A stretch of DNA of 64,000 nt from Minisyncoccota bacterium (GTDB lineage Bacteria > Patescibacteriota > Minisyncoccia > Phycocordibacterales > Zambryskibacteraceae), in the NCBI GenBank assembly GCA_025450175.1, contig JANWHY010000008.1:56289-120288 (forward strand), written 5' to 3'. The notes under the pieces are model-generated. The model worked only from the letters and a program-made list of their open reading frames with translations, was not told the DNA's origin and made no database searches. Below are positions 6,970 to 20,567 of the stretch, piece after piece; the stretch's first letter is position 1; the number at the start of each line of letters is the position of its first letter. The position numbers and the translations under genes are program-made.

Positions 6970-8334
6970 CTATACAGCCAAGAGATTCCTAATCTGACCA
7001 ATCTCATCGGTCAGGCTCTCATCTTGTTTGATATCTGTTTTTATCTTCTCGCAGGAGTGGATGACGGTCGTGTGGTCTCTTCCTCCAAGCTTTTGTCCTA
7101 TAGATGGGTAAGAAATATTAAAGTCTTCTCTCAATATATACATAATAATTTGCCTCGGACGGATCACTTCCTTATGCCGAGTTTTCTCATAAATACTTTC
7201 TTCCTTAATATTGTAGAAGTCGGAAACAATCTTTACCACATCCTTAACGGCCATGGTTTTCTTGGGCTTAATATTATTTTTTATATAATTACGGGCATCG
7301 AGCATGGAGATCTCCTTGCTTTTGAGCTGAGCTTGGCAGAAGAGGGCGTTCAAAGCACCTTCGAGGTCTCGGATGTTGCCGTTGACCGTGTGGGCCAAGT
7401 AATCTATCACCTCTTCGGCAAGAGCCAGGCCTAGTTGGTTGGCCTTCGCCTTGATAATAGCGATACGTGACTCCTTGTCGGGTATAGGTATATCTACCGT
7501 CATGCCGGCAGAGAGACGAGACTTCAATCTCTCTTCAAGCCCGGTAATAAAGTATGGGTGTTTATCTGAGGAGAAGATGATCTGCCTATTGTTATCGTAA
7601 AGCGTGTTGAAGAGGTGGAAAAGCTCTTCTTGGAACTTCTGCTTATCGGCGAAAAACTGGATGTCGTCGACGATGAGTACGTCGTACTTACGATATTTCT
7701 CCTTAAATATAGCCATTTTCTGGTTCTGAAGGGCGTTCATGCAATCCTGGCCGAACTGCTCGGAGGTCATGTAGTAGACTCTTTTGCCAGGGCTAACGGT
7801 CTTTATGTAGTTACCCACAGCCTGGATGAGGTGAGTCTTCCCGTGGCCTGTGGGGCCATGGATGAAGAGTGGGTTGTACATAATGCCAGGCTTCTTGATA
7901 ACGGCCTGGGCTGCCGCATGAGCAAGCTCATTAAATGGCCCAATTACAAAGGTTTCGAAGGTGTAACGAGGGTTGAGGTTGTCATCTTTATTGACCTGAG
8001 TCTCGGGGAGAGGAAGTTCTCTAGTTTGGAGGTCCTCCTTATGGGTAAGATCCTTCTTACGTGGTCCCTCCTTATTCACAACGTACTCCACAGCATGGAT
8101 TGCGCTATTGAGGTTCCGTAAACTTCGCAAAATTGTGTTGTGGTACTTGGTAAGTAGCCACTCCTTCACAAAAGCATTAGGGACGGAGAGTACGATAACC
8201 CCTCCCTCTTCCTTAACTATCCATGTATCCTTAAACCAGGTTGTGAAGTTGGCGCTGGAGATGCCAAGTTCTATCTCTACTAGTACGCTCTGCCAGAGTT
8301 GCCTGTAATCGCTCATAGGAATAGGTAACATCAT
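6970..8334 (-). CDS. dnaA: chromosomal replication initiator DnaA
   Basis: Walker A GPTGHGKTHL, AAA+ initiator domain, C-terminal DNA-binding signature HTTVIHSCEKI. Confidence 0.95.
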   Translation of the reverse strand: MMLPIPMSDYRQLWQSVLVEIELGISSANFTTWFKDTWIVKEEGGVIVLSVPNAFVKEWLLTKYHNTILRSLRNLNSAIHAVEYVVNKEGPRKKDLTHKEDLQTRELPLPETQVNKDDNLNPRYTFETFVIGPFNELAHAAAQAVIKKPGIMYNPLFIHGPTGHGKTHLIQAVGNYIKTVSPGKRVYYMTSEQFGQDCMNALQNQKMAIFKEKYRKYDVLIVDDIQFFADKQKFQEELFHLFNTLYDNNRQIIFSSDKHPYFITGLEERLKSRLSAGMTVDIPIPDKESRIAIIKAKANQLGLALAEEVIDYLAHTVNGNIRDLEGALNALFCQAQLKSKEISMLDARNYIKNNIKPKKTMAVKDVVKIVSDFYNIKEESIYEKTRHKEVIRPRQIIMYILREDFNISYPSIGQKLGGRDHTTVIHSCEKIKTDIKQDESLTDEIGQIRNLLAV

Positions 8335-8412
8335 AGCCTGTTTAACCCTCCCACAAAAACTTGTTAAAGTAAGGAAAAATGTTTATAATGTGTTTATAAC
8401 TTGTTGAGATAA

Positions 8413-8553
8413 ATGTCTAGAACATACAAACCTAAGAAGCGCAAACGCGCGCGTAGTCACGGCTTCCTTTCGAGGTCCAAAACTGCTGGTGGTCGCCGCA
8501 CTCTAAAGGCGAGAAGGAGAAAAGGGCGAAAGAAGCTAACAGTCACTAGTTAG
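8413..8553 (+). CDS. rpmH: 50S ribosomal protein L34
   Basis: Hand-translated, not in track: [46 protein letters not shown]; classic L34, immediately upstream of rnpA and divergent from dnaA. Confidence 0.85.
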
Positions 8554-8567
8554 TAGCCTCGAGCTTA

Positions 8568-8819
8568 ATGAGCTATTTCTATTTGCGTACCACTCCAGGC
8601 GAAGAAGTTAAGTTTATTATCTCTGTTTCTAAAAAAGTTTCTAAAAAAGCGGTAATCAGGAACAGAATTCGTAGAAGAGTGCGCCCAATTTTGAAAAAAT
8701 TAGATTTACCCACCAGGAAAGCTACATACTTTGTCGTTGCTAAGCCTGGCGCCGAAGTGATAAAAGGAAAAGAGCTAGAAGCTGAGATTTTAGGGTTAAT
8801 TAGGTCAATTAGAAATTAG
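8568..8819 (+). CDS. rnpA: ribonuclease P protein component
   Basis: Basic RNR motif IRNRIRRRVR, position between rpmH and yidC; short (83 aa). Confidence 0.8.
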   Translation: MSYFYLRTTPGEEVKFIISVSKKVSKKAVIRNRIRRRVRPILKKLDLPTRKATYFVVAKPGAEVIKGKELEAEILGLIRSIRN

Positions 8820-8835
8820 AAATTATAATATAGAT

Positions 8836-9549
8836 ATGTCCTTCCTTTATCACACCTTCTTCTTTGATCCACTTCTTAATATCTTAGTTCTTTTCTTTAA
8901 GACTCTACCCTTCCTTGATGCTGGGGTTATTGTGATCCTCTTCACGATACTTGTGCGTCTACTCATGTTTCCTCTCTCGCGCAAAGCCGTGCATACGCAA
9001 GTGAAGATGGCCGAGATTGGTCCAGATCTGGCACGGATCAAAGAGCAGTATAAAGATAAGATGGAGGAACAAGCCAAAAAAACTCTTGAGCTCTATCAAC
9101 AAAAAGGGGTTAACCCGTTCTCTGGGATTCTCGTGGTGATCATACAGATCCCCATAATCTTCGCTCTTTATCGGATCTTCCTACACTTCCCAGATGTTAA
9201 CCCAGCTTTCTTATATCACTTTGTTACTCAACCCGAACATTTGAATACCACCTTCTTAGGACTCTTTGATCTCACAGAAAAGAGCGTCATCCTTGCGGTA
9301 ATTGCAGCTATCTCTACCTTTTACCAGATTAGAATATCAACTAAGCACGCTCCTAAGCCCGAGAGTAACTCCTTTAGTGATAATCTCACTCGTAATATGC
9401 AAACCCAGATGAAGTACTTCTTCCCTGTGATTGTATTCTTCATCTCCTACTCTATCTCCGGAGCTATTGCACTCTACTGGCTCACTACAAATATCTTTTC
9501 CGCTATTCAAGAAACTTTTGTACGGAGAAGGCTCGCAGTCAAAAGCTAA
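8836..9549 (+). CDS. yidC: membrane protein insertase YidC/Oxa1 (short form)
   Basis: Multi-TM, conserved insertase core around NPFSGILVVIIQIPIIFALY; synteny rpmH-rnpA-yidC. Confidence 0.85.
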   Translation: MSFLYHTFFFDPLLNILVLFFKTLPFLDAGVIVILFTILVRLLMFPLSRKAVHTQVKMAEIGPDLARIKEQYKDKMEEQAKKTLELYQQKGVNPFSGILVVIIQIPIIFALYRIFLHFPDVNPAFLYHFVTQPEHLNTTFLGLFDLTEKSVILAVIAAISTFYQIRISTKHAPKPESNSFSDNLTRNMQTQMKYFFPVIVFFISYSISGAIALYWLTTNIFSAIQETFVRRRLAVKS

Positions 9550-9551
9550 AG

Positions 9552-10796
9552 CTATTTAAGTCTCAATGCCCAGAGGCTAAGGTCGCGCTTGTTGGTGAAG
9601 ATAAGATATTTTTCTTTTGGAGAAAGTTTGGGGTTAATTAGGTCGATGTCAGTACTTAGTTCTTGTTTGGGTTCTGCGAGAAGTTGAGCAATGTTTGAGG
9701 TAGTCTCAAACCTCCAAATGCGATCCGAGAACAGAGTCTCACCTCGATACCAACTATCCAAATTTTTTGGCACCAGGCCACTATTAGGAGATCCACAATA
9801 AACCACTTCGATTTCTACAGTACTCCAAATACATTTCTCAGCTAGCGTAGCTGAAGAAATTTCGGCATTAACATCTTTCTCTATATTGCGAGCCACTAGG
9901 TGTGTGGTGTTGCCGTCGCTGTAAGAATAGAGGACGCGACTACCAGAACTATTCGGTATTGCTACAAGTCCATTTAGAGGTCCAAGTAGTTTTGAGAGTG
10001 AGCCGCTCGAAGTATTGAGTCGGTACACTACGCCATCCGAGCTACTCTCAGCCTTGGGGTAGATAAGTACAATGTTGCCGCTGGCGGCGAGTCTCCAGTT
10101 GGTAAACTTAGATTCTAAAAGCGTTTTGGTATTGGCTCCGGTGAGAGTAGAGCTAACAATTCTAGCTGTGTCTGTAAGGGAGTAGATTAGAGTGTTGGAG
10201 GTGTCGAGAGCTACGCTACCGATCCGTCCACGGATCGGGGTGGCACTAACTGTATAGAAGTCTGTGGTTGTGCCTTGTTTGGGAGGAGTAAGGGCAATAG
10301 CCAAGTTCTCGATCTCGTCAGACTCGTCTCTAAGCGAGCGGAAAAGTGCTCCCGTACCGTCGTTTCGGAAGTAGGCCTCATAAGTCTTGGGCAAGGTGTT
10401 GTTGGTCAGGCGAGTCTTGGTAAAAGATTGAGAGCTTGTAGATATAGGGAGTACCACTTCATAGATATGCCCAGTTGCTCGCTCTGCGTATCTCACCACC
10501 ACATCGGTTCCTCTCTCGAAAATTACTGAGCCCGCGATAGGAGTATTGGCCAGGCGGAAAATATTTTTAGTTGGAGAGGAGAATTGATCGAATCCTGCCT
10601 CACCATTTTGTCCAGAACCGGACTCGTTCTGGTTCTGGGTTGTAGGAATATTAATATCCTCTCCAGATCCGAAGGGTAAACCATTCTCATCTAGAGAAAC
10701 TATTGGGTCCTCGGGTGTTTGGAAGAAGAAGTACCAAGCTCCTCCCGCAATAATAATGAGGAGTAGAAGGATCAAAATTAAATAAGTCTTTTTCAT
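9552..10796 (-). CDS. bitopic membrane protein, last gene of T4SS-like operon
   Basis: N-terminal TM MKKTYLILILLLLIIIAGGAWYFFF then a large extracytoplasmic S/T-rich domain; 3 nt after preceding gene. Confidence 0.6.
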   Translation of the reverse strand: MKKTYLILILLLLIIIAGGAWYFFFQTPEDPIVSLDENGLPFGSGEDINIPTTQNQNESGSGQNGEAGFDQFSSPTKNIFRLANTPIAGSVIFERGTDVVVRYAERATGHIYEVVLPISTSSQSFTKTRLTNNTLPKTYEAYFRNDGTGALFRSLRDESDEIENLAIALTPPKQGTTTDFYTVSATPIRGRIGSVALDTSNTLIYSLTDTARIVSSTLTGANTKTLLESKFTNWRLAASGNIVLIYPKAESSSDGVVYRLNTSSGSLSKLLGPLNGLVAIPNSSGSRVLYSYSDGNTTHLVARNIEKDVNAEISSATLAEKCIWSTVEIEVVYCGSPNSGLVPKNLDSWYRGETLFSDRIWRFETTSNIAQLLAEPKQELSTDIDLINPKLSPKEKYLIFTNKRDLSLWALRLK

Positions 10797-10799
10797 AAA

Positions 10800-11696
10800 T
10801 TAAAATGAGGCGTGCCAGTGATCATTGGTAGACGCAACTTCTCCCCCACACTTAGAACCTAGTGGTTCCCATAACCAGCGGCCACCTCCTGCTGAATATG
10901 TTTGGCAAGCTGATAGGGGAGCACTATTTGCAACTGTGCTATTTAATCTAATGTCTGAGCGTACATCTACAGCTATACCACTATAATGACTAGAACCTGT
11001 AGTGTGCCCACCCTCTGTGCCAGCAGTAATTACTATAGAACAATTACATGGAGTATTTCTTACAGCGACTAAGCCATTAATTACTGACGGTTGTAGGCCG
11101 TTAAGATTTACACAGTTTCTAGTTTGCCCTTCAATACAAGGTCCTCTGTAAGCACTTATACCAAAGGGTAACGATTGTCTAACTGCTGTATCAGCAGCTA
11201 TTTGTTCAGCTGTCATAGGTACACCTATTGTAGAGGCTCCGGTAGCTGGTGGATTATTAGGAATAGTTTGGCGTTCCAGCGTACTAAGATCGAAGTTAAC
11301 AAAAGGATTCTTATCATTTGGACTAATAGAATAGAGGATGAGCCATGCTCCGATCGCAAGGAGGAGTCCCCAGATAGCATTTGTGATTGTGCCCTTAGCA
11401 TTACCCTTCTCGGTAAAGGCCTCACTCGACATATACTTGATGCCTCCAATAATTATCATGAGCACAGCCAAGACTCCTGCAAGTGCGATGGTGAGCTTGA
11501 AGACTCCTACAAGATAAGCTGAAGCATTAGTCTTACATTCTGTATTGGCGGCACCAGTACATCCGCTTTCTTCCAAAGGAATAGGGGCAAGGAGATTGTA
11601 GTTAGTAGGTTGTGGAGTCTGGGCAAGGGCTCGCTCGGCATTCAGTAAGGATGTCGCACTTACTACTAACAACAAAAATGTAATTATTCTTATCAT
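10800..11696 (-). CDS. membrane-anchored M15/LAS-type peptidoglycan peptidase (VirB1/PrgK functional analogue)
   Basis: Signal peptide, two hydrophobic helices separated by a short loop (VirB2/TrbC-like topology), C-terminal domain with SSHYSGIAVDV (SxHxxGxAxD) and DHWHASF (E/D-x-W-H), the zinc motifs of VanY/M15 peptidases. Confidence 0.55.
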   Translation of the reverse strand: MIRIITFLLLVVSATSLLNAERALAQTPQPTNYNLLAPIPLEESGCTGAANTECKTNASAYLVGVFKLTIALAGVLAVLMIIIGGIKYMSSEAFTEKGNAKGTITNAIWGLLLAIGAWLILYSISPNDKNPFVNFDLSTLERQTIPNNPPATGASTIGVPMTAEQIAADTAVRQSLPFGISAYRGPCIEGQTRNCVNLNGLQPSVINGLVAVRNTPCNCSIVITAGTEGGHTTGSSHYSGIAVDVRSDIRLNSTVANSAPLSACQTYSAGGGRWLWEPLGSKCGGEVASTNDHWHASF

Positions 11697-12382
11697 AACG
11701 ATGGATTGACGCTACTTACATTCTTAAAGTTTATATTGAAGTTAGAGTGAGCATCTTGAGTGACGAGCTTAGAACTTCTTACCCTTAGAGATACTGTAGC
11801 TTCTCCTTCTGTATCCGCGGGGGCGCGATAGGTAACCATCCTAGTCTTACTCGTCTCTCCAGAGTTGGTCGTCCAGTTGTACTCTAGGTTGGAGTTACTA
11901 AAGAAGAGCGGGAAAGCTCCGAAGGTGACTTCTGCCCTCGGGAAGTTGTAGGTCTGTCTGACTGCTTCGTGGAACATGAAGCCATATAGAGGATTATCCT
12001 CAAATATGAGTAAGGAAGGAGCTTTGGGCACTATTATTATAGAGTTACTAGCTGCTACATTTTGCCCCGAGACTATCTCTAATCTAATCTCTTGAGGTCT
12101 TGAGAGGATGGAGTCGGTGTAGCTAATAGAAGAGCGACCAATGCCTGAGGCGTTGCCGAGTACCGTACCATTCCTAATCCAGCGGTAATTGAGGTTACTA
12201 GCACTACCAAGTCCAGTAGGCATAGCGACGAGAGTGATGGTCGATTCCTTAGACCACAGGCTCTTACCTAAGTAGAAGGGGGGTGTGTATGTCTCCCCTT
12301 GCCAGAGGATATCGACACTTTGAGCCCTTAGAAAGATAGGAGTAAGGAACAATAGAGAGAGTATTACAAAGAATTTCATCAT
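11693..12382 (-). CDS. secreted hypothetical protein of T4SS-like operon
   Basis: Cleavable signal peptide MMKFFVILSLLFLTPIFLRAQS; 4-nt overlaps with both neighbours. Confidence 0.6.
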   Translation of the reverse strand: MMKFFVILSLLFLTPIFLRAQSVDILWQGETYTPPFYLGKSLWSKESTITLVAMPTGLGSASNLNYRWIRNGTVLGNASGIGRSSISYTDSILSRPQEIRLEIVSGQNVAASNSIIIVPKAPSLLIFEDNPLYGFMFHEAVRQTYNFPRAEVTFGAFPLFFSNSNLEYNWTTNSGETSKTRMVTYRAPADTEGEATVSLRVRSSKLVTQDAHSNFNINFKNVSSVNPSL

Positions 12383-12735
12383 TTCATTATATCTAATTTT
12401 GTTATGCCTTCTCCAGGGATAACTTTCTTAAGCTTCTTACTCAGAGCCAGGTAACTTACGGCAGCAGTCCAGGCTGGTATTGAGGCAAGGAATGGGACTG
12501 GAATTATTTCTAGAAGAGAGGCCCCACCGAAGGCTAGGATCCTCTTTGGCTTAGTGAAACTTATGTTATAGAACTTAAACCAGACATAGAAAGTGAGTCC
12601 GGCGAAGATCCCCACCACCCATCCCATATAAATAAACCCGAGTAATATCTGGAGGAAGTCAAAGAAGACTGCCACCGCAATCATAAATACTACGGTATGA
12701 GACTTAATCTCCTTTTCTTCTTTATTGCCCCACAT
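12379..12735 (-). CDS. small polytopic membrane protein of T4SS-like operon
   Basis: 3-4 TM helices; track ORF to 12774 overlaps the VirB4 C-terminus, Met at 12735 (MWGNKEE) more plausible. Confidence 0.5.
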   Translation of the reverse strand: MWGNKEEKEIKSHTVVFMIAVAVFFDFLQILLGFIYMGWVVGIFAGLTFYVWFKFYNISFTKPKRILAFGGASLLEIIPVPFLASIPAWTAAVSYLALSKKLKKVIPGEGITKLDIMK

Positions 12736-14602
12736 TTTTAGCTTTGGCCTCTTGCATCTCCTTATATCTCGCAAGTTCTACGGCCTCCTTCTCTGCAATG
12801 GCCTCGCGCTTAGCTTGTTTGATAGCCAAGATCTGTCCAGGATCAGAGGTAATGATCTGGTCTTCGGTGTAGGAGGCAATGTTCTTGATAGCGACGTGCT
12901 TCAGGCCGGCGAAGAAGATGCCCTCACCCACATCGGACTCGAGTAAGAGGTACTTCTCCTCGTCGGTGAGGTTAAAAACCTTCTGCAACTCATCTATAGT
13001 AGTGGGAGATTGCTTGAGAAGCATCTGGATCGAAGAGTTGGTAATAATAGGCACACCATAAGGACTCTTGAGGAAGTCCCCCACATCTTGAGTAATAGTA
13101 GCTACTCCGAGGAAGTATTTGCGACCACGCTTGACGAGGCCCATGAGGAAGGAGGCTGTGTCCTCAGACTTCATCATCCACCAGGCTTCGTCGATGACGA
13201 GTAGGCGCTTCTTAAGATCCTTCCTAATAGCGTTCCAGATAAAGTGGGTCACGATGTACATGGCGATGGGCTTGAGCTCATCTTCCATATCGCGGAGAGA
13301 GAAGACCACAAACTTCTTATTGATATCGACGTTCGAAGGGCGGTTGATGAAGCCGGCCCAAGTACCCTTAGTATATTTAGATAATCTTTGTGCTAGTGAC
13401 TCCCCTCCGGACATGCCTGAGAGCACAAGTTCGAAGTCAGACATGAGTGGAGCTTCGACATTGGTGAAGTCGGAGTCAGCGGTAATATCTTTTAGCGCAT
13501 ATGTCTCGGTGATAGCGCGGTCGATGATGGCATCTTCTTCGGCAGTAAGACCACCCATCATAAGTCGGAAGAGACCTACGAGGTTGATGATGTTAGAACG
13601 GAGGATATTGGCCGCGCTCTCGTCGGGCCCGGGAGGGGCTAGGTCGAATGGGTTTATATGGTGCTCAGAGTTGAGAGAGATGTTGAAGTAGCGGCCACCA
13701 GTGGCATCGGCCATGTACTCATACTCTTTCTCAGGGTCGATGACGATGACCTCAGTATCAAACATTAAGGTACGCAAGATCTCGAGCTTAGTAGCATAAG
13801 ACTTACCAGCACCAGCCTTGGCGAACATTACAGAGTTATAGTTCTCAAGTGAGAAGCGGTCGAAGAGTACTAAGGATGAGTTGTGTCTGTTGATACCGTA
13901 GAGGATACCCTTATCAGAAGTTAGGTCGAAGGAGGTGAATGGAAAGAGTGATGAGAGAGGAGAAGAGTTGAGCTTGGAGTGTACACCGAGGAGGTCGTTG
14001 CCTAAGGGGAGGGTACTCTTATAACCTTGCTCTTGTTGGAAGAGAGCGGGCTTTACGTAAATTAATTTTGCCTCGAGGATTGACTTGATCTCGGACTCCA
14101 CCTTGTCGAGCTCTGCCTCAGACTCTCCATATATAGTCATATATAGACCGACGTCGAAGAGCTTCTCTTGAGCTTGTTGGAGTTGGTCGCGCAAATTCTC
14201 GAGATCTTGGTATGCGATATCGAGCATTGGGTCTCGGACTAAGCCCTTCTCTTCTCGGGAGTGGATCTGAGATTGTACCTCGGCAACCTTCCTCTGGAAT
14301 TGGCGTAGGACGCGCGCTGTCTCAATAGGATGGACGAAGATCGAGACGTCGAAGACCTTGTCCATATTTATAATAGGAGCAAACCAACCTTCTGTAAGAA
14401 AGCGTGGGTAAGAGATGACGAAGAAGGTGCGCAAGATCTTCTCGCCGAGGTTAATCTCCTTGGGGGTGATCTTCAATGCGGAGGGGGCAATGATGTCCTT
14501 AAGCTCCAAGGCGCCGGCCTCGAAAATCTCTTTCGGTAAGATCGAGCTAATATCCTGCTTAGCTTCTCCCTTCTTGCCTAAAATTTTGTCGAAAATTCCC
14601 AT
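12722..14602 (-). CDS. VirB4/TrbE/CagE-family type IV secretion ATPase (ATPase portion)
   Basis: Walker A FAKAGAGKSY, Walker B LLVIDEAWWMM, ~620 aa. Confidence 0.9.
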   Translation of the reverse strand: MGIFDKILGKKGEAKQDISSILPKEIFEAGALELKDIIAPSALKITPKEINLGEKILRTFFVISYPRFLTEGWFAPIINMDKVFDVSIFVHPIETARVLRQFQRKVAEVQSQIHSREEKGLVRDPMLDIAYQDLENLRDQLQQAQEKLFDVGLYMTIYGESEAELDKVESEIKSILEAKLIYVKPALFQQEQGYKSTLPLGNDLLGVHSKLNSSPLSSLFPFTSFDLTSDKGILYGINRHNSSLVLFDRFSLENYNSVMFAKAGAGKSYATKLEILRTLMFDTEVIVIDPEKEYEYMADATGGRYFNISLNSEHHINPFDLAPPGPDESAANILRSNIINLVGLFRLMMGGLTAEEDAIIDRAITETYALKDITADSDFTNVEAPLMSDFELVLSGMSGGESLAQRLSKYTKGTWAGFINRPSNVDINKKFVVFSLRDMEDELKPIAMYIVTHFIWNAIRKDLKKRLLVIDEAWWMMKSEDTASFLMGLVKRGRKYFLGVATITQDVGDFLKSPYGVPIITNSSIQMLLKQSPTTIDELQKVFNLTDEEKYLLLESDVGEGIFFAGLKHVAIKNIASYTEDQIITSDPGQILAIKQAKREAIAEKEAVELARYKEMQEAKAKNVGQ

Positions 14603-14606
14603 AATA

Positions 14607-15263
14607 TTATGCTATCTTTATTGGCTTCTCTGTCTCGCCAGGGTTAAAGGCTTTGTAGAAAAGCTCGATCACTTCTTCTGTACCAAGGCGAGCGACTCGG
14701 ATACCACTTCTTACCAAACCTTGCTCGACCACGGACATGCGCTCTTCGAGCTGGGTGCGGTTCTCATCGAAGCCGCTACTCGAGACTCCCGCGGAGGTCT
14801 CTGTCTTCTTGCCCAGCCCGAATTGCGCCGCGAGACCCTTGAGCCCACTCTCTCCCCCAGTTGAGCCGAGTACTGCCGGGGTATAAGGCACGACGATAAA
14901 GAAGTTCTTGGTCATGATGTTGGTGCTCTCAGTAAAACTTCGTACGAACTCAATATATTCTCGCACTTGGATCTTCATGAGGTTATTGGTTTGGGCCTTC
15001 TCTTGCCCTTCGAGTAGTGCAATGTATGGGCGGATGTCGAGCTTCCGCGACTGGATGACTATCTCTATAGAGAAGTCGAGTGAGTTGAGGAAGTCTTGGA
15101 ACTGGAGGAGGATGGCATTCTTCTCATCCTCAGACTTCAGAGAGAAGTTGAGAGAAGAACACAAGAGGAGAGCACGCATGCTGTCATCCTTGAGTACGAT
15201 GATGCCATCCTTAACCTCTTTTATGGGCACAAACTCTTGAGTTGCGTTAGTTTTCTCAGCCAT
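14607..15263 (-). CDS. hypothetical protein, possibly the detached N-terminal domain of VirB4
   Basis: 218 aa soluble protein ending 4 nt before the VirB4 ATPase start, different frame; 218+626 aa approximates a full-length VirB4. Confidence 0.55.
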   Translation of the reverse strand: MAEKTNATQEFVPIKEVKDGIIVLKDDSMRALLLCSSLNFSLKSEDEKNAILLQFQDFLNSLDFSIEIVIQSRKLDIRPYIALLEGQEKAQTNNLMKIQVREYIEFVRSFTESTNIMTKNFFIVVPYTPAVLGSTGGESGLKGLAAQFGLGKKTETSAGVSSSGFDENRTQLEERMSVVEQGLVRSGIRVARLGTEEVIELFYKAFNPGETEKPIKIA

Positions 15264-15284
15264 TACTTATGATTTTATCACCTT

Positions 15285-15719
15285 TTACTCCGAAATCTTA
15301 TCCTTAGTGACAGGATTTTGATTACTTTGGAGATCTAATTGCCAAGTAAGGTCTTTGAGCTTCGAATCTGAGAGCTTAGGCACGTATACTTGCTCTATGT
15401 CTGCGTCACCTTCTTCTCCTCTAGTTCTTATTACGGTCTTCTCCTCCTTCTTCCAAATATAAAGTTTGTTAGTGGTGTGGAACTTGAGAAAAGCCTCGAC
15501 CATATTAATGAAGGGTTTGTCATTTACCTTGTAGAAAGCTAGGGCTGCACCGAAGAGGATGGCCGGTAAGGCCAAGAGTATAGCTATAAACTTGGGTAGG
15601 ATGAGGAAGAGGACAACAGCCACAGCCACTCCTCCACCCACGTAGATAAACTGTTTAAAGGTCAGTGGACCAAATATCTTATCTTCTACTTCTATAAATT
15701 GTGGTACCTGGAATCTCAT
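15285..15719 (-). CDS. VirB3-like small two-TM protein
   Basis: 144 aa, two adjacent TM helices (GGGVAVAVVLFLILPKFIAILLALPAILFGAALAF), positioned just upstream of VirB4 as VirB3/PrgI-like proteins are. Confidence 0.5.
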   Translation of the reverse strand: MRFQVPQFIEVEDKIFGPLTFKQFIYVGGGVAVAVVLFLILPKFIAILLALPAILFGAALAFYKVNDKPFINMVEAFLKFHTTNKLYIWKKEEKTVIRTRGEEGDADIEQVYVPKLSDSKLKDLTWQLDLQSNQNPVTKDKISE

Positions 15720-16573
15720 GTTTGTTCTCTATAAGGATCTTTGCCTCCCCCATAACGATAATCTGGTAGTGAAACCTTTTCTGCCCCGACGCTTGCGGTC
15801 GGAGTGGGCGCTGGTTGCATAGGTTTGATAACTGCCTCCTTAGATTCTTTGTTGATGATTATAGTGGGTTCAAATGTTTGGGGCTTACTTTCTATCCCTG
15901 TCACATACTGCTTAATACTTATTGGTGGGGGTGGGGTTGCGGGAGTAGGAGTTGGAGCAGCTGTCTTAGGTGGAGTTTGTTGTGTAGGCGTTGGTGTCGG
16001 TAGAGAGGGACTTGTCCCGTACCGAGCTAGCTCTGGTACGGGATGAATCTCTGGGGCTATCTCTAGAGCTTTCCCAGAATTATTTATTTCAGATGATGGG
16101 ATGTATGGTTTCTCCCCCATACTTATCCGCTTTTCTATAAGCTGTTTCATTACATCTTGCTTGGATTCTTTGACAGGAACTGATACTGGCTTTATTGCTG
16201 GTGCTACTTGAGCTGCTCCCGGTATACCTTTTTTGTTTACTTCAATAAAATCTTTTATATCAATGCTGTATTTGCTGAAAACTTTTTCTTCCAAAGTGGA
16301 TCTAAGTACAGAAAGATCTGTGGCATTCTTCCCAATAAGTTTTGCAATATTATTTATTGCATCCCCAAGACTTTGAAGACAATACATAGCGTACAGGATC
16401 TCACTATCTGCAGAATTTGATTGATCATCATTAAGCCCCATTTCTTTCAAGGTTTTAGCGATAAGCTCTGTGGTCTCATTGTCCATTATTAAATCCTGAA
16501 CCTTTGGAGGGAGTTTTTTGTAGGCATTTCTAGTTTGTTCTGATGTGAAAGTCATTTTATGGGAAGCTAGCAA
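15716..16573 (-). CDS. hypothetical protein with Pro/Thr-rich linker
   Basis: TPTPTQQTPPKTAAPTPTPATPPPP low-complexity spacer; translationally coupled within the operon. Confidence 0.55.
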   Translation of the reverse strand: MLASHKMTFTSEQTRNAYKKLPPKVQDLIMDNETTELIAKTLKEMGLNDDQSNSADSEILYAMYCLQSLGDAINNIAKLIGKNATDLSVLRSTLEEKVFSKYSIDIKDFIEVNKKGIPGAAQVAPAIKPVSVPVKESKQDVMKQLIEKRISMGEKPYIPSSEINNSGKALEIAPEIHPVPELARYGTSPSLPTPTPTQQTPPKTAAPTPTPATPPPPISIKQYVTGIESKPQTFEPTIIINKESKEAVIKPMQPAPTPTASVGAEKVSLPDYRYGGGKDPYREQT

Positions 16574-18872
16574 TTCCAGCTGGGCTTAATAGCCATGTAT
16601 GTGTTCTGTGTGTGGCTGGAAGTGTTGCCAGAATGTAAGTACGTAAGGTTGAAACATCCGCTGGGTTCATTTCTGGGGCCATGCGCTTCAATAATTCCGG
16701 AGTATAAGTCTCTGCCATAGTAGGAGTCTGGAGGTCTGTCATATCAAGAGATGCAATCTCTTTATGACCCAATCCTTTTACTATTGTTTGAGCAGTTGCA
16801 ACAGCAGCAACAAACCCGGCAGCGTTACCAGCTGCATGGGCGGTATTACCAGTAGCCAATGCTGTTCTAAGCGGCTGCCTTCTTGCTGTTCGCAAAGCAC
16901 CTTTTTGGCTTGTGGTAAATTTAGTACTCTTGTTTACGGTATCAATTTGGGATGGTTGCATTTGTGATACAAAATCAGCATTTCCTAGATGATCTGGATT
17001 AATCATCTCCAACTCAGTATCAGAGAGCCTTCTAATATTTGCTCGAACACTAGCTGCACCAGGTCCGCCGGGAGCTATAGCAGTATTTATCTCCCCAAAC
17101 CTTCTATTCTTAAGATTATCTTTCTCTGCTTCTGAGAATTTATCACTCTTATTTATAGCATCAAGTTGTTGGACGCTTACTCTATTTGCAAATTCTTGAC
17201 TATTAAGTAGGGAGCGATTGGATTCGACAATAGCCTCTATTTCTTTAGTTGTGGAATTACTAATAGCCTTTTCGAGCTTATTTGCTTGAGGTTGTAGGAC
17301 TGCCAATCTAGCTGTTTGCGCAGCCGTCGGCGTTCCTCCGGCAGCAGTAACTACTGCGTTAATGGTGTCTATTTCCTGGGCCGCAGCGAGATTCCCTTGA
17401 TCTGTGATGGCCAATTCAGCATCAGCTTTCCTGCCTCTCTCTACCCTAGTCTTGCGAGAGTCAGTACCAGGTCTCTCAAGGAATTCTCGGACTGCTTTTC
17501 TTTCTGCCTCAACTCCACCTTGGCCTCCAGCATTTCCCACATCTAGACCGGCCCCACCAAGCATTCCTCCCACCTTGGTTCCTCTAACATCGAATGATCC
17601 TTTTCTAGTTTTGTCTATTGTTGCCAAACTCAAACGAGCAAATGAACTATTTGGAGAGGCGGCCTCCATTCTTTTGTACATCTTACTTTCTTTGAATACT
17701 TCAGCTCCTGCGCCGAGGGTGTATCTACCCGCTCTTCCAGCTAATCCAAATGAAGCCCCACCCGCGGCTCCGGTGGCCCACTTGGTAAGACCAGATACTG
17801 CAGGTCCAGCCATGTTGGAAACATTTTTAGCAATTATTAGTGAGGCGATTAAAAATGCGATAACTATAATAAAGTTCACTAAAATCTGCACAGAACTTTG
17901 AGGTGGAAGATTTACGGCCCCACTAGCAACAGCACTCCCAGCAATTTTTGCCCAATTCTCTGGGTTCGATGGTAGACCCTTTGCGACCACTATGACTACC
18001 CATGTAAGTAGAAAATATATTGGAGCAAAGAATGCTTGACCTAAAAGAGCATTTTGCCACTGGGTTCGATACTTCCCAAGCTCTGGCATTATAAAGCCCA
18101 TAAAAGCTAGTGGAGAAAGAATGATTACAAAAATTAATACCACATAACGAATAATAAACATTATAGAGATAGCAAAGAAGACAAATGCCGCAATCATGGT
18201 GACTATCGTACCCATCACGCCGATGACAAGTAATTGCTTATCGTCAATAGTATCTATTTTCCAGAGATTCTGGAGTCCTAAGGGCTGCATCAAACTATTA
18301 GAAATTCCCCTACTTATATCTAGAGAAAGGGCCCCGGGGGCAATGGCATCATAGAAAGTAATAGCTAAAACATTTGAGGCATCAATTACCACCTTGGTAA
18401 AGAAGAGGCTGAAGTTTATAAGTATGGCAACTACGATAACCTTCATGATTAACTTTTGAGTCTCACCACCCAGACCAAGAATTGTTTTAATAGCGGCATA
18501 GAGAAGTATGAAAATAAAACACATATTCGCGACATCTCTTATTGCTGTCCAAGCCTTATTGATAAAATCTGCACTCGATAAATTATCAGCCATGAGAACC
18601 ACCGTATATTGAGTAACAAAGTTTAAGACAGCTCCACTAAGAAAAGTGAAGTAAGCTCCAATAGTTAGGACTAAAATAGATACATTCCCTAAGGCTTTAG
18701 TTACCCAAGTGATCGGATTAAGTGCGGCGAGTAAGCCACCCTCACTACTAACCGAACCCCAAGCCGTTCCAAGAACTGCCTCCGCGTTTTGAGGCATTAT
18801 TAATAACCCAACTATAAATATAGAGGCTAGTATGGGTAGAAAATTAATTTGTATAAAAATCTTTTTCATCAA
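16557..18872 (-). CDS. VirB6/TrbL-like polytopic membrane protein with long Gly/Ala-rich C-terminal domain
   Basis: Signal peptide plus >=7 TM helices in N-terminal 400 aa, hydrophilic C-terminal ~370 aa; architecture of Gram-positive VirB6 homologues. Confidence 0.6.
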   Translation of the reverse strand: MMKKIFIQINFLPILASIFIVGLLIMPQNAEAVLGTAWGSVSSEGGLLAALNPITWVTKALGNVSILVLTIGAYFTFLSGAVLNFVTQYTVVLMADNLSSADFINKAWTAIRDVANMCFIFILLYAAIKTILGLGGETQKLIMKVIVVAILINFSLFFTKVVIDASNVLAITFYDAIAPGALSLDISRGISNSLMQPLGLQNLWKIDTIDDKQLLVIGVMGTIVTMIAAFVFFAISIMFIIRYVVLIFVIILSPLAFMGFIMPELGKYRTQWQNALLGQAFFAPIYFLLTWVVIVVAKGLPSNPENWAKIAGSAVASGAVNLPPQSSVQILVNFIIVIAFLIASLIIAKNVSNMAGPAVSGLTKWATGAAGGASFGLAGRAGRYTLGAGAEVFKESKMYKRMEAASPNSSFARLSLATIDKTRKGSFDVRGTKVGGMLGGAGLDVGNAGGQGGVEAERKAVREFLERPGTDSRKTRVERGRKADAELAITDQGNLAAAQEIDTINAVVTAAGGTPTAAQTARLAVLQPQANKLEKAISNSTTKEIEAIVESNRSLLNSQEFANRVSVQQLDAINKSDKFSEAEKDNLKNRRFGEINTAIAPGGPGAASVRANIRRLSDTELEMINPDHLGNADFVSQMQPSQIDTVNKSTKFTTSQKGALRTARRQPLRTALATGNTAHAAGNAAGFVAAVATAQTIVKGLGHKEIASLDMTDLQTPTMAETYTPELLKRMAPEMNPADVSTLRTYILATLPATHRTHTWLLSPAGIASFP

Positions 18873-19789
18873 TGGAATAGTCCGTCAGTAGTACTGAATA
18901 CATATTTGTTTAATGCTCCAGTAACAAATGCTTCTACAAGATCTTCTAAGTGCTGGGCACTTACGAATCGATCCATGTTGGCGGGGAGAACATGGTTTAG
19001 CTGCTCTGCTATGACAATGCCAGGAGTTTGTACTGGACCACGCTTGGTACACTCGCCTACGGCCTTACCAGGGACGTGACCATTTCCCCCTACCTGCCCA
19101 CTGACGTTTGTGCCGGCTTCAACCTGTATAGGCGGAGGGTTAGTTTCTAAACACTCTGACCAGCTAAGAAATCCCTGAGCCCAATCAAGTTGCTGACTCT
19201 CTATGCCAATTTGAGTTGCTAGGCGATTATCGAGCTCCACCTTCGCTTCGAGATATGCTCCGTAGGGGTTGTTAGAATTATTTTGAGTCATACTAAACCA
19301 GCCATCCCAACCTCCTTGAGAGAAGTCCCCATAAAATCCTTCTATGTTTCCAACCACATCAGTCAGGGTACATTGGAAACGATTAGGCCTATTGTATTCC
19401 GTCACTAGTGCAAGCCTGATCTGTGCTTGGAAGGGCGAACAAAGGAAACCAAGATCGCTCCCAGCTATGAATTCACCTGCTACCCCATCGGCAATATCTT
19501 GGAAGTATTGTTTGGGGTTAGTAGCATAAGCAGGATTACCCTCGAAGCCAGTGTTGGCCCACTCGACAGTAGAATCCACCATCCGCTGTATAACTGCTTG
19601 GGCAGCCGCTCTGGCAGCAATATCAGCGAAGGTCAAACTAGTTTGAGCAATAACAGAGGCATTAACTGTGGGGTCAAAGACCACTCCTCCAAACAACTGC
19701 GCTTCAGCTCGCGAAGCAAACATGGGCAAGAAGCTCGTCAGAGTGAGAGAGAGTAGGAGAAGTGATGTTGTTAGGTATTTAGAGAACAT
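18869..19789 (-). CDS. secreted hypothetical protein of T4SS-like operon
   Basis: Signal peptide MFSKYLTTSLLLLSLTLTSFLPMFASRAEA; 4-nt overlap with the VirB6-like gene. Confidence 0.6.
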   Translation of the reverse strand: MFSKYLTTSLLLLSLTLTSFLPMFASRAEAQLFGGVVFDPTVNASVIAQTSLTFADIAARAAAQAVIQRMVDSTVEWANTGFEGNPAYATNPKQYFQDIADGVAGEFIAGSDLGFLCSPFQAQIRLALVTEYNRPNRFQCTLTDVVGNIEGFYGDFSQGGWDGWFSMTQNNSNNPYGAYLEAKVELDNRLATQIGIESQQLDWAQGFLSWSECLETNPPPIQVEAGTNVSGQVGGNGHVPGKAVGECTKRGPVQTPGIVIAEQLNHVLPANMDRFVSAQHLEDLVEAFVTGALNKYVFSTTDGLFH

Positions 19790-19790
19790 T

Positions 19791-20567
19791 TTAGTAAGTT
19801 ATATTCCACTTATCCTTTAGATCTTTCTTGATTTCCTCCAAGACCGTTCTTTCTTTCTCCATGTTTTCTTTGAGGGCTATCAATCCGGCTAAAGCTTTCA
19901 TAGGATCAGTTTCCATATCTATATAAGCCTTCATGGCTGCTTGATTAGAGAGATGAAGGTTCACTAACTCTAATTGGAGAGATGAGAAGGATGTGGGCAC
20001 GGGCATACTTTTAAAAGCGGATGCAAGAGTGCTGTAAATTTTTGCGGCACTGTTTACAAACGGAACATAAGAAGTTGTAGAAGGTTGAGGACCAGAAGTG
20101 GTCATTTCTTTAGCAGAATTTATGTAAGCGTTTGAGAGTGCTTTGGAATATGTGACAACACTTTCTTCTGAGTCGTATACGACATTGATATCTAAGATGA
20201 TTGCCTTGGTAAACACGTGACTTCTAAGCGTGGCCTCTACATACTCACTGGCTAGAGTGTCGATAGTTCCTTGGTCGGGAGCGAGACCGCTTGATTCTAA
20301 GTTGAGGTAGCTGAGTAGTAAGTTCCTAGTAATAATATCTGTGCTTGTTAGAGGTTCTGATGGGGGTTGCTTGACCTCCTGGGGCGGGACTTCGTGGGTA
20401 AGAGGTAGGAAACTATTGAGCATGGCTTCCTCTTCGTCTGTTGTCTTAACAGTTTTTATTGCGGCCTCGTTGTAATAGATCTCTTGGGCGGGAGCGAGGC
20501 GATACCAAGAAGCTACTCCTATAAGTAGTATCGATAATGAAAGTGCTAGTCCTAATCTAAGAGACAC
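19791..20567 (-). CDS. bitopic membrane protein, first gene of T4SS-like operon (possible VirB8-like)
   Basis: Single N-terminal TM (LALSLSILLIGVASWY) plus ~230 aa extracytoplasmic domain. Confidence 0.55.
   Translation of the reverse strand: MSLRLGLALSLSILLIGVASWYRLAPAQEIYYNEAAIKTVKTTDEEEAMLNSFLPLTHEVPPQEVKQPPSEPLTSTDIITRNLLLSYLNLESSGLAPDQGTIDTLASEYVEATLRSHVFTKAIILDINVVYDSEESVVTYSKALSNAYINSAKEMTTSGPQPSTTSYVPFVNSAAKIYSTLASAFKSMPVPTSFSSLQLELVNLHLSNQAAMKAYIDMETDPMKALAGLIALKENMEKERTVLEEIKKDLKDKWNITY

Follow-up and report, generated by a model that had tools for sequence, protein, structure and literature searches.

Two adjacent genes very probably encode a naturally split VirB4 ATPase in a type IV secretion operon of a Parcubacteria bacterium

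Two neighboring open reading frames (ORFs) that together approximate one VirB4 raise the question of whether a single gene has been broken, misassembled, or naturally divided. Both lie on the minus strand of the 64,000-nucleotide stretch of DNA analyzed here (the window), and both start with ATG in the ORF list: ORF A (14607..15263; 218 aa) and ORF B (12722..14602; 626 aa). A preliminary description had placed the end of the 218-aa ORF 4 nt before the ATG of the 626-aa Walker A/B ATPase, in another frame, and the ORF list and junction sequence agree. The minus strand reads ...AAG ATA GCA TAA TATT ATG GGA..., with the TAA of ORF A at 14607-14609, the 4-nt spacer TATT at 14603..14606, and the ATG of ORF B at 14600-14602, and the two reading frames differ. 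In the ORF B frame, stop codons precede the ATG by 4 and 6 codons, so the two ORFs could be fused only by an indel within an interval of 2-3 nt; inspection of the junction sequence revealed no homopolymer run. Our analysis indicated that ORFs A and B very probably constitute a naturally split VirB4, in which the signature ATPase of type IV secretion systems (T4SSs) is produced from two genes and the first half of its N-terminal domain (N-domain) is encoded separately.

The two ORFs belong to a T4SS-like operon of eleven tightly packed or overlapping minus-strand genes (9552..20567 in the ORF list), whose junctions other than that between A and B have gaps of -17 to +21 nt. The operon adjoins yidC, rnpA, and dnaA (6970-9549); synteny with yidC and rnpA (and dnaA) is repeated in six related loci (L001-L004, L090, and L091), and T4SS genes near dnaA have been reported in Patescibacteria (PMC12102498). 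Directly upstream of ORF A is the gene for a small membrane protein of the PrgI family (VirB3-like; 15285..15719, minus strand; PF12666 PrgI, 50 bits against a cut-off of 27); this protein presumably partners the VirB4 N-domain and anchors it in the membrane. The adjacency of a VirB3/PrgI homolog to virB4 is that of an MPF_FATA-type (Gram-positive-like) T4SS, and the order PrgI, TraC-like protein, ATPase recurs in L001-L005, C. difficile BI1, and Aneurinibacillus. The same operon encodes a 298-aa protein (10800..11696, minus strand) with an N-terminal VirB2-like T4SS pilin segment, of which aa 65-122 match Pfam T4SS_pilin PF18895 (27.6 bits; cut-off, 26.6), alongside a weak match to the Mbov_0395 pilin-like conjugal transfer protein (E 2e-4). 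Pfam, NCBIfam, and PDB sequence searches gave no support for an M15/LAS peptidase motif suspected in the C-terminal half of this protein. A 771-aa ORF (16557-18872), a candidate for the VirB6-like polytopic membrane protein expected of such a cluster, resembles 709-796 aa genes of relatives in position and size, with no match in Pfam or NCBIfam. Pfam and NCBIfam scans of the eleven operon genes showed neither a relaxase nor a VirD4-type coupling protein; most T4SS clusters of Patescibacteria are reported to be without a relaxase (PMC12102498). The locus is a chromosomal, origin-proximal T4SS operon of a Parcubacteria/Paceibacteria bacterium, and the closest relatives of the source genome are labeled Zambryskibacteria.

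ORF B is an N-terminally shortened VirB4 ATPase, made up of the second half of the N-domain and the RecA-like C-terminal ATPase domain. It belongs to the VirB4 family by a curated profile threshold (NF045971, CD1110-type VirB4; 372.5 bits against a cut-off of 325), with aa 30-574 aligned to profile positions 183-736 of 752, and its Pfam matches are P-loop_TraG (88.7 bits against 25.8), AAA_10, and DUF87. The Walker A motif AKAGAGKS occupies aa 261-268 (window 13799-13822) and the Walker B motif LLVIDE occupies aa 467-472 (window 13187-13204), and aa 228-585 match the VirB4 C-terminal domain (CTD) in PDB 4AG5 (E 2.6e-39). The ORF does not carry a complete N-domain of ~400 aa, as its match begins only at profile position 183 of 752. 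The preliminary description had pictured a division between an N-domain of ~200 aa and the ATPase; the N-terminal placement of ORF A held, but the break lies about half-way through the ~400-aa N-domain and not at a domain boundary, because the second half of that domain is still present in ORF B. This is evident from the TraC_F_IV and CagE_TrbE_VirB matches at aa 125-200 and from the match to TrwK residues 290-735, which pairs TrwK residue 290 with residue 116 of ORF B. The break is located in a short, variable linker inside the VirB4 N-domain.

ORF A is a TrsD-like or "TraC-like" protein and, judging from profile alignments, corresponds to the first half of the N-domain of VirB4. Alignment with full-length VirB4, proposed earlier as a check, placed it in the N-terminal region of two NCBIfam profiles, with aa 4-125 matching the 894-position Mbov_0397 VirB4 profile (E 1.4e-12) and aa 9-120 matching the 752-position CD1110 VirB4 profile (E 9e-6). 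A protein identical to ORF A (P0001) and all its listed homologs carry the precomputed family PF26593.2, named "TraC-like"; our own Pfam-A scan of ORF A returned no family at E <= 0.1, the PF26593 model being probably absent from that copy. Probable membership in a named family (PF26593 "TraC-like", remotely TrsD/TraD) marks the arrangement as a known architecture rather than a single-genome curiosity. The score against the NCBIfam TrsD/TraD model NF041427 (22.4 bits; E 8.6e-5) was far under its curated cut-off of 200 bits, and comparison with pSK41 TrsD gave a non-significant hhalign probability of 1.4% and a weak hmmsearch match (E 5e-4). These scores point to ORF A as a remote relative of TrsD with the same role and position, outside the staphylococcal subfamily NF041427. 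PDB sequence searches with ORF A yielded no relevant match, no record in the contig index matched its exact sequence, and a low-complexity loop is present at about aa 128-165. The AlphaFold2 (AF2) model of ORF A alone, built on a shallow alignment of 31 sequences, was poor (pLDDT 51), so the A module could not be fold-matched by itself. Homologs number at least 8000; each of the best 120 is a stand-alone protein, with lengths of 211-230 aa. The family forms 2303 clusters at 50% identity; among its best 150 representatives, one is fused and 38, about a quarter, are extended (270-443 aa), with long disordered Pro/Thr/Ala/Gln-rich C-terminal tails in the four inspected.

The N-domain part missing from ORF B is supplied by ORF A, as far as the two profiles can tell: the ORFs occupy positions 2-115 and 183-736 of the CD1110 profile and positions 100-233 and 284-877 of the Mbov_0397 profile, respectively, with no overlap and with the order kept. 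A sister Parcubacteria lineage (Colwellbacteria-like) has both pieces fused in a protein of ~790 aa. In its representative P0204 (797 aa), residues 1-214 align with full-length ORF A (41% identity) and residues 225-793 with ORF B residues 29-596 (55% identity). Of the 120 P0204 homologs listed, 118 are 775-807 aa long and combine PF26593 with the ATPase domains, many being labeled Ca. Colwellbacteria, and the fused proteins occupy the same syntenic locus, after PrgI and near yidC-rnpA-dnaA. One shorter relative (P0289 in L089; 600 aa, 88% identical to P0204) was considered as a recent fission and rejected as an artifact of a 100-N scaffold gap. Sequence searches with the fused-family profile reached the VirB4 CTD only. 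The AF2 model of P0204 (pLDDT 75) matched R388 TrwK/VirB4 (8rtd_O) nearly end to end (E 8e-29; TM, 0.59; 844 columns), as compared with ~385 columns for the CTD-only structure 4AG5. The length of this alignment and its colinearity suggest that ORF A would correspond to about residues 1-200 of TrwK, the fold output itself being without residue ranges. Profile coordinates, natural fusions, and the fold match of a fused homolog bear out the earlier proposal that the two ORFs amount to one VirB4, with its N-terminal part in ORF A.

We scored 81 related species-level loci and measured the junction in 80 of them. Consistent with a genuine split, which the preliminary description had listed among its options and for which it had proposed a comparison of orthologous loci, ORF A has its own stop and ORF B its own start in all 81 loci, the start being ATG in the 80 junctions measured. 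The gap between the two genes is -4 nt in 3 loci, -1 in 2, +1 in 21, +2 in 12, +3 in 2, +4 in 11, +5 in 4, 6-115 in 16, and 421-491 in 9; it therefore ranges from -4 to +491 nt, with 55 of the 80 within -4 to +5 and most within -4 to +24, and all three frame relations occur. The nine wide gaps hold an insert of ~450 nt between the genes, which in the four loci with gene calls (L001-L004) is an unrelated 119-aa 23S_rRNA_IVP gene. The ATG of ORF B is conserved, and in most loci the alignment of its homologs begins with residue 1; odd lengths returned by the crude ORF caller (L025, 515 aa; L061, 753 aa; L064, 1267 aa; L080, 188 aa) represent no A-B fusion. Mean amino-acid identity across 76 species is 70% for ORF A and 85% for ORF B, with tightly correlated divergence (r = 0.86), and both ORFs appear to be under purifying selection. 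The conservation of both ORFs and the recurrence of the two-gene layout in every locus scored show that their juxtaposition is no coincidence. The split architecture is found in thousands of independent assemblies (NCBI, ENA, JGI, and Logan).

Among the alternatives, the one that best withstands these data is that ORF A descended from the VirB4 N-terminus and is now an independent accessory factor, such as an adaptor or regulator, with partners of its own. Its faster evolution relative to ORF B, the extended family members with their disordered tails, and the report of Gracilibacteria TrsD homologues unassociated with virB4 (PMC12102498) all point this way, and the small protein could have gained roles of its own, given its rate of change and the extensions in part of the family. 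We nevertheless regard full independence as distinctly unlikely, because ORF A supplies exactly the region that ORF B lacks, an entire clade has the pieces joined with no rearrangement, and A and B remain adjacent in 81 of 81 loci while diverging in step. Programmed recoding, whereby ribosomes would shift by +1 at the TAA or read through the stop codon to yield a fused full-length VirB4, draws on the fact that a +1 slip at GCA-TAA enters the B frame three codons before the ATG; it is very improbable, as there is no conserved signal, the frame offset is 0, 1, or 2 depending on the species, the spacing varies from -4 to +24 nt or more, with an insert of 421-491 nt in nine loci, and Firmicute homologs have a canonical Shine-Dalgarno (SD) sequence ahead of the ATPase gene. 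That a frameshift mutation or pseudogenisation broke a single virB4 in the source genome, as adjacent ORFs in different frames 4 nt apart and fused versions in a related lineage might suggest, is scarcely credible when all 81 related loci have two genes with variable spacers and frames and sometimes an inserted gene, the ORF B ATG and both ORFs are strongly conserved, and the fused clade is nested among split forms in a neighbor-joining tree of the A module (computed without support values). A sequencing or assembly indel deserves equally little credence: metagenome-derived assemblies do contain such errors, as the scaffold-gap artifact above illustrates, but the junction offers no homopolymer and only 2-3 nt in which the frames could be joined, the related loci keep two genes whatever their spacing, frame, or inserted gene, and the same architecture is present in independent assemblies and in complete plasmids of cultured Firmicutes. 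Both of these last two options, raised in the preliminary description, are rejected on the strength of the 81 relatives.

In the naturally split VirB4 that we favor, the polypeptides of ORFs A and B would be made independently. The tight stop/start spacing may favor coupled translation in roughly equal amounts, although spacing can only suggest coupling; SD sequences are rarely used in the source genome (median anti-SD duplex, -1.5 kcal/mol), so the missing SD before ORF B is uninformative on this point. Complementarity, the existence of fusion proteins, and strict adjacency suggest, at the level of sequence, that A and B associate physically, and a non-covalent association of this kind would rebuild the complete VirB4 N-domain. 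The rebuilt domain could then dock on the upstream PrgI/VirB3-like membrane protein, with which ORF A would be in physical contact, and might support oligomerization of the ATPase that powers the machine.

A further, unlikely reading is that the break is an exploited design feature and not a neutral fission, with TrsD-like proteins acting as regulators of T4SS assembly. Detaching the VirB3-binding half of the N-domain would free its C-terminus, as the tailed family members might illustrate, and could let the cell tune the number of VirB4 subunits that are membrane-anchored or dimerized in the double-hexamer. If this were true, the single Colwellbacteria-like re-fusion would represent a lineage that gave the feature up, and TrsD-like regulators would operate in the one phylum where the T4SS is essential for life.

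For annotation, the split VirB4 that we favor means that the two ORFs are neither a pseudogene nor to be merged, and that ORF A, usually labeled "hypothetical protein", would be better described as "VirB4 N-terminal module (TrsD-like)". It also gives TrsD a concrete and testable proposed role, namely supplying the missing half of the VirB4 N-domain, the domain implicated in VirB3 binding and dimerization in R388.

Several known systems share parts of this arrangement. The single-chain MPF_FATA VirB4 proteins (CD1110, Mycoplasma ICE Mbov_0397, and Colwellbacteria-like) have the same domains in the same order as A and B combined, but in one polypeptide of 750-900 aa, whereas the window locus has two. 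R388 TrwK/VirB4 (PDB 7O41 and 8RTD) shares its fold over the whole length with the fused P0204 model, but belongs to a Gram-negative MPF_T system, is a single chain, and has only 13-16% sequence identity; in R388, VirB3 wraps around the VirB4 N-domain (residues 15-400), and this domain mediates dimerization (PMC9259494). The opposite trend, fusion of VirB3 to VirB4, is known in some systems, with none found in Patescibacteria (PMC12102498). The TrsD(TraD) and TrsE(TraE) proteins of staphylococcal pSK41/pGO1 form a two-gene counterpart: in pSK41, trsD (227 aa) is separated by a 14-nt gap from the gene for a 672-aa DUF87/VirB4 ATPase, and small membrane proteins, including a CagC/VirB2-like pilin, are encoded upstream. 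ORF B aa 36-573 align with TraE/TrsE aa 36-616, and this colinearity from residue 36 of both indicates the same break point. ORF A resembles staphylococcal TrsD only marginally, and the window locus is chromosomal, whereas pSK41 is a conjugative plasmid that carries a relaxase and a coupling protein. In pXO1-type, C. difficile BI1, and Aneurinibacillus plasmids, a TrsD-like gene of 304-333 aa immediately precedes a separate gene for the ATPase, which is 699 aa long in pXO1 and 640 aa in C. difficile BI1; the ORF A profile matches these small proteins at E 1e-10 to 1e-25, and their ATPases share the starting position of ORF B. In C. difficile BI1 and Aneurinibacillus, the gene annotated just before the pair is of the PrgI family, and in pSK41 and C. 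difficile the ATPase gene is preceded by an SD sequence of its own. These pairs differ from the window locus in being plasmid-borne and in the N-terminal extension of ~40-75 aa on the small protein, and their products bear no annotation beyond "hypothetical protein"; in Aneurinibacillus, the downstream gene (only 321 aa) covers no more than the N-terminal half of ORF B.

The nearest comparison is with the TrsD and VirB4 T4SS of Patescibacteria, which comes from the same phylum and has the same MPF_FATA-like set (PrgI/VirB3, TrsD-like protein, VirB4, and VirB2-like pilin) and dnaA neighbor; we see no substantive difference, and the window is one more instance. Quinonero-Coronel et al. (2025, PMC12102498) report that no T4SS component is more abundant in Patescibacteria than TrsD, with 1,664 of its 2,272 homologues adjoining virB4, and that it is essential in Ca. 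Southlakia epibionticum, the only genetically tractable Patescibacterium, whose T4SS was described by Wang et al. (2023, PMC10633639). The protein was left without an assigned function but credited with "remote homology" to the VirB4 N-terminus (PMC12102498); the main text of Guglielmini et al. 2014, cited as the source of that homology, does not mention TrsD. The split is already known from Patescibacteria and some Gram-positive plasmids and is ordinary for the phylum. To this published picture of TrsD, our analysis adds a small refinement: the exact complementarity of the two proteins, the position of the break point, and a sister clade in which the pieces are re-fused.

ORF A (14607-15263, minus strand; 218 aa) and ORF B (12722-14602, minus strand; 626 aa) proved to be, exactly as the preliminary description claimed, two ORFs lying 4 nt apart in different frames. 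At the coding-strand junction (...GCA TAA TATT ATG GGA...), four bases separate the TAA stop of ORF A from the ATG of ORF B, no homopolymer is present, and in-frame stop codons lying 4 and 6 codons before its ATG close the frame of ORF B. ORF B was also correctly described as a Walker A/B ATPase, with the motifs AKAGAGKS (aa 261-268) and LLVIDE (aa 467-472). The A/B junction resembles all others within the tightly packed eleven-gene operon (gaps of -17 to +21 nt), and a PrgI-family (VirB3-like) gene identified by Pfam lies immediately upstream of ORF A. Against the CD1110-type VirB4 model, ORF B scored 372.5 bits, above the curated cut-off of 325, but covered only positions 183-736 of 752. It also matched 4AG5, a solved structure of the VirB4 C-terminal domain (E = 2.6e-39), and residues 290-735 of TrwK, the VirB4 of R388. 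ORF A matched CD1110 positions 2-115 (E = 9e-6), the N-terminal end absent from ORF B. In the Mycoplasma ICE VirB4 model (894), ORF A mapped to 100-233 (E = 1.4e-12) and ORF B to 284-877; the stand-alone TrsD/TraD model matched ORF A weakly, far under its cut-off (E = 9e-5). Pfam PF26593 ("TraC-like") is carried by the database protein identical to ORF A and by all listed homologs; it was absent from the results of a local Pfam scan of ORF A. Because the profile coordinates are colinear and complementary, with a PrgI gene upstream, the two ORFs are complementary, non-overlapping parts of one VirB4. The suggested assignment of ORF A as the N-terminal piece thus agrees with its matches to the start of full-length VirB4 models.

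An exhaustive representative search with ORF A returned 2303 related clusters (50% identity), the best 150 of which were inspected for length: the majority were separate proteins with lengths of about 200-260 aa, another 38 were longer (270-443 aa), and one, P0204, had 797 aa. The whole of ORF A aligned with P0204 residues 1-214 (41% identity), and ORF B residues 29-596 aligned with residues 225-793 (55% identity). Among the 120 clusters listed in a search with P0204, 118 were of 775-807 aa and combined PF26593 with ATPase domains, many labeled Ca. Colwellbacteria, with the fused genes at the orthologous locus, after PrgI and near yidC-rnpA-dnaA. These natural fusions confirm that ORF A and ORF B together correspond to one VirB4, in line with the earlier estimate that they approximate a canonical VirB4 in size. 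In an unbootstrapped, Firmicute-rooted neighbor-joining tree of the A module, the fused clade was nested 14 nodes deep among split forms, which tentatively suggests an ancestral split in this T4SS subclass and a secondary re-fusion in the Colwellbacteria-like form.

When fused and split forms were aligned, ORF A ended five residues past a conserved FNPGETEK motif, the conserved core of ORF B started near residue 28 (EAGALELKDIIAP), and a variable linker of 10-20 residues joined the two parts in fused proteins. The AF2 model of P0204 (mean pLDDT, 75; linker, 56-62) matched full-length R388 TrwK/VirB4 (8rtd_O) almost end to end (E = 8e-29; TM, 0.59; 844 columns, versus about 385 for the CTD-only structure). 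The N-terminal domain of R388 VirB4 covers residues 15-400; VirB3 wraps around it, and it provides the VirB4 dimer interface (PMC9259494). Given this span and the end-to-end match, the break lies roughly half-way inside the N-domain, not between N-domain and ATPase; of the proposed partition, it holds that ORF A supplies the N-terminal part, but ORF B keeps the rest of the domain.

At least 8000 ORF A homologs were found, and in the best 120, which come from independent assemblies, the protein is always separate and 211-230 aa long. Junctions were scored in 80 loci of distinct species-level genomes, the majority labeled Zambryskibacteria, Paceibacteria, or Parcubacteria, and in two further loci: A had its own stop and B its own start in 81 of 81 loci with both genes. 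At all 80 junctions measured, the ORF B homolog began with ATG, and in the majority of loci its alignment with ORF B started at residue 1. The spacing was -4 (3 loci), -1 (2), +1 (21), +2 (12), +3 (2), +4 (11, the value in the window), +5 (4), 6-115 nt (16), and 421-491 nt (9), with frame offsets 0, 1, and 2 all represented; in loci L001-L004 the long gap is occupied by an unrelated gene, a 23S_rRNA_IVP family member of 119 aa. Mean identity over 76 species was 70% for A and 85% for B (r = 0.86).

The adjacent cistrons would be translated as two separate polypeptides, and, with most junctions (55/80) falling between -4 and +5 nt, coupled translation would be favored. Most likely, a complete VirB4 N-domain is formed when the TrsD-like protein packs on ORF B's N-terminal half; this domain could then bind the PrgI/VirB3-like anchor and support ATPase oligomerization. 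Shine-Dalgarno strength is uninformative on coupling, since this genome rarely uses such sequences (almost absent; median anti-SD duplex, -1.5 kcal/mol over 49 long ORFs in the whole window). Several starts in the window are directly preceded by TATAAT-like hexamers, which, with the scarcity of SD sequences, suggests that leaderless or very short-leader mRNAs are common.

As a minority alternative, the small protein may now act independently as an adaptor or regulator; this reading draws on the faster evolution of ORF A and on extensions in about a quarter of its clusters, with long disordered tails in the four inspected. In these four (P0200, P0203, P0205, and P0178), the conserved module is followed by a C-terminal tail of low complexity, rich in Pro, Thr, Ala, and Gln. 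A conserved recoding signal was rejected because gaps and frame offsets vary among loci, and pseudogenization because both genes are conserved over the 76 species. The frameshift and sequencing-indel options also fail: all 81 loci have two conserved genes with varied gaps and frames, the split persists across independent assemblies, and the junction lacks a homopolymer. Of the options first offered, a genuine split was the correct one; the split VirB4 is real and typical for the phylum. P0289, an apparent "short VirB4" in the fused clade, shows what a real artefact looks like: a 100-N scaffold gap in the N-terminal part of a fused virB4 (L089, a deposited MAG contig, 1213-1667) led the gene caller to emit a spurious 600-aa protein, a reason for caution where split and fused forms are tallied solely by gene calls.

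Several features were observed around these genes. In L001-L004, from related Parcubacteria, 23S_rRNA_IVP/bAvd-like four-helix-bundle genes (119-121 aa; L001 4848-5213, 5721-5993, and 6684-7043, with equivalents in L002-L004) lie between T4SS genes, and one of the insertion sites separates the TrsD-like gene from the VirB4 gene; a GIY-YIG gene is present in L001 as well. Inserts of about 420-490 nt follow the ORF A homolog in L032, L035, L056, L059, L071, L074, L075, and L077. A perfect palindrome often surrounds the ORF A stop codon, e.g., AAAGTGAGCTAGCTCACTTT in L001, and is present without an insert in L031; it may represent a hairpin target or the footprint left by a small mobile gene. In a 298-aa protein (10800-11696, minus strand), aa 65-122 in the N-terminal part form a VirB2-like T4SS pilin segment, and the C-terminal region contains SSHYSGIAVD and DHWH, which resemble the zinc-binding SxHxxGxAxD/HxH motifs of peptidoglycan peptidases of the M15/LAS type. 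The protein may therefore be a cell-wall hydrolase tethered to a pilin; no peptidase domain was confirmed by sequence searches against Pfam, NCBIfam, and PDB. The gene downstream of ORF B, listed at 12379-12774 (131 aa, TTG start), has a more plausible start in the ATG at 12735 (118 aa, MWGNKEEKE...), in keeping with the 116 aa of its homologs in relatives; it shares 14 nt with the end of ORF B (12722-12735).

A survey of Patescibacteria T4SSs by Quinonero-Coronel et al. 2025 (PMC12102498) reports TrsD as their most abundant component (2,272 homologues, 1,664 of them beside virB4). The two-gene architecture is therefore already published, and the window adds a further example. That survey lists TrsD as essential in Ca. 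Southlakia epibionticum and also notes the proximity of the T4SS to dnaA. In the window, the T4SS-like operon (9552-20567) abuts yidC, rnpA, and dnaA (6970-9549), the chromosomal replication origin region, and this synteny is common to split and fused relatives. The same break is found in Firmicute plasmids. In pSK41, trsD (227 aa) is followed after a 14-nt gap by a 672-aa DUF87/VirB4 ATPase, which aligns with ORF B from residue 36 of both proteins. The break position is likewise shared by the pXO1 pair (304 + 699 aa), the C. difficile BI1 plasmid (PrgI + 322 + 640 aa), and an Aneurinibacillus plasmid, whose small proteins are matched by the ORF A profile at E values of 1e-10 to 1e-25; in pSK41 and C. 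difficile, the ATPase gene has its own Shine-Dalgarno sequence.
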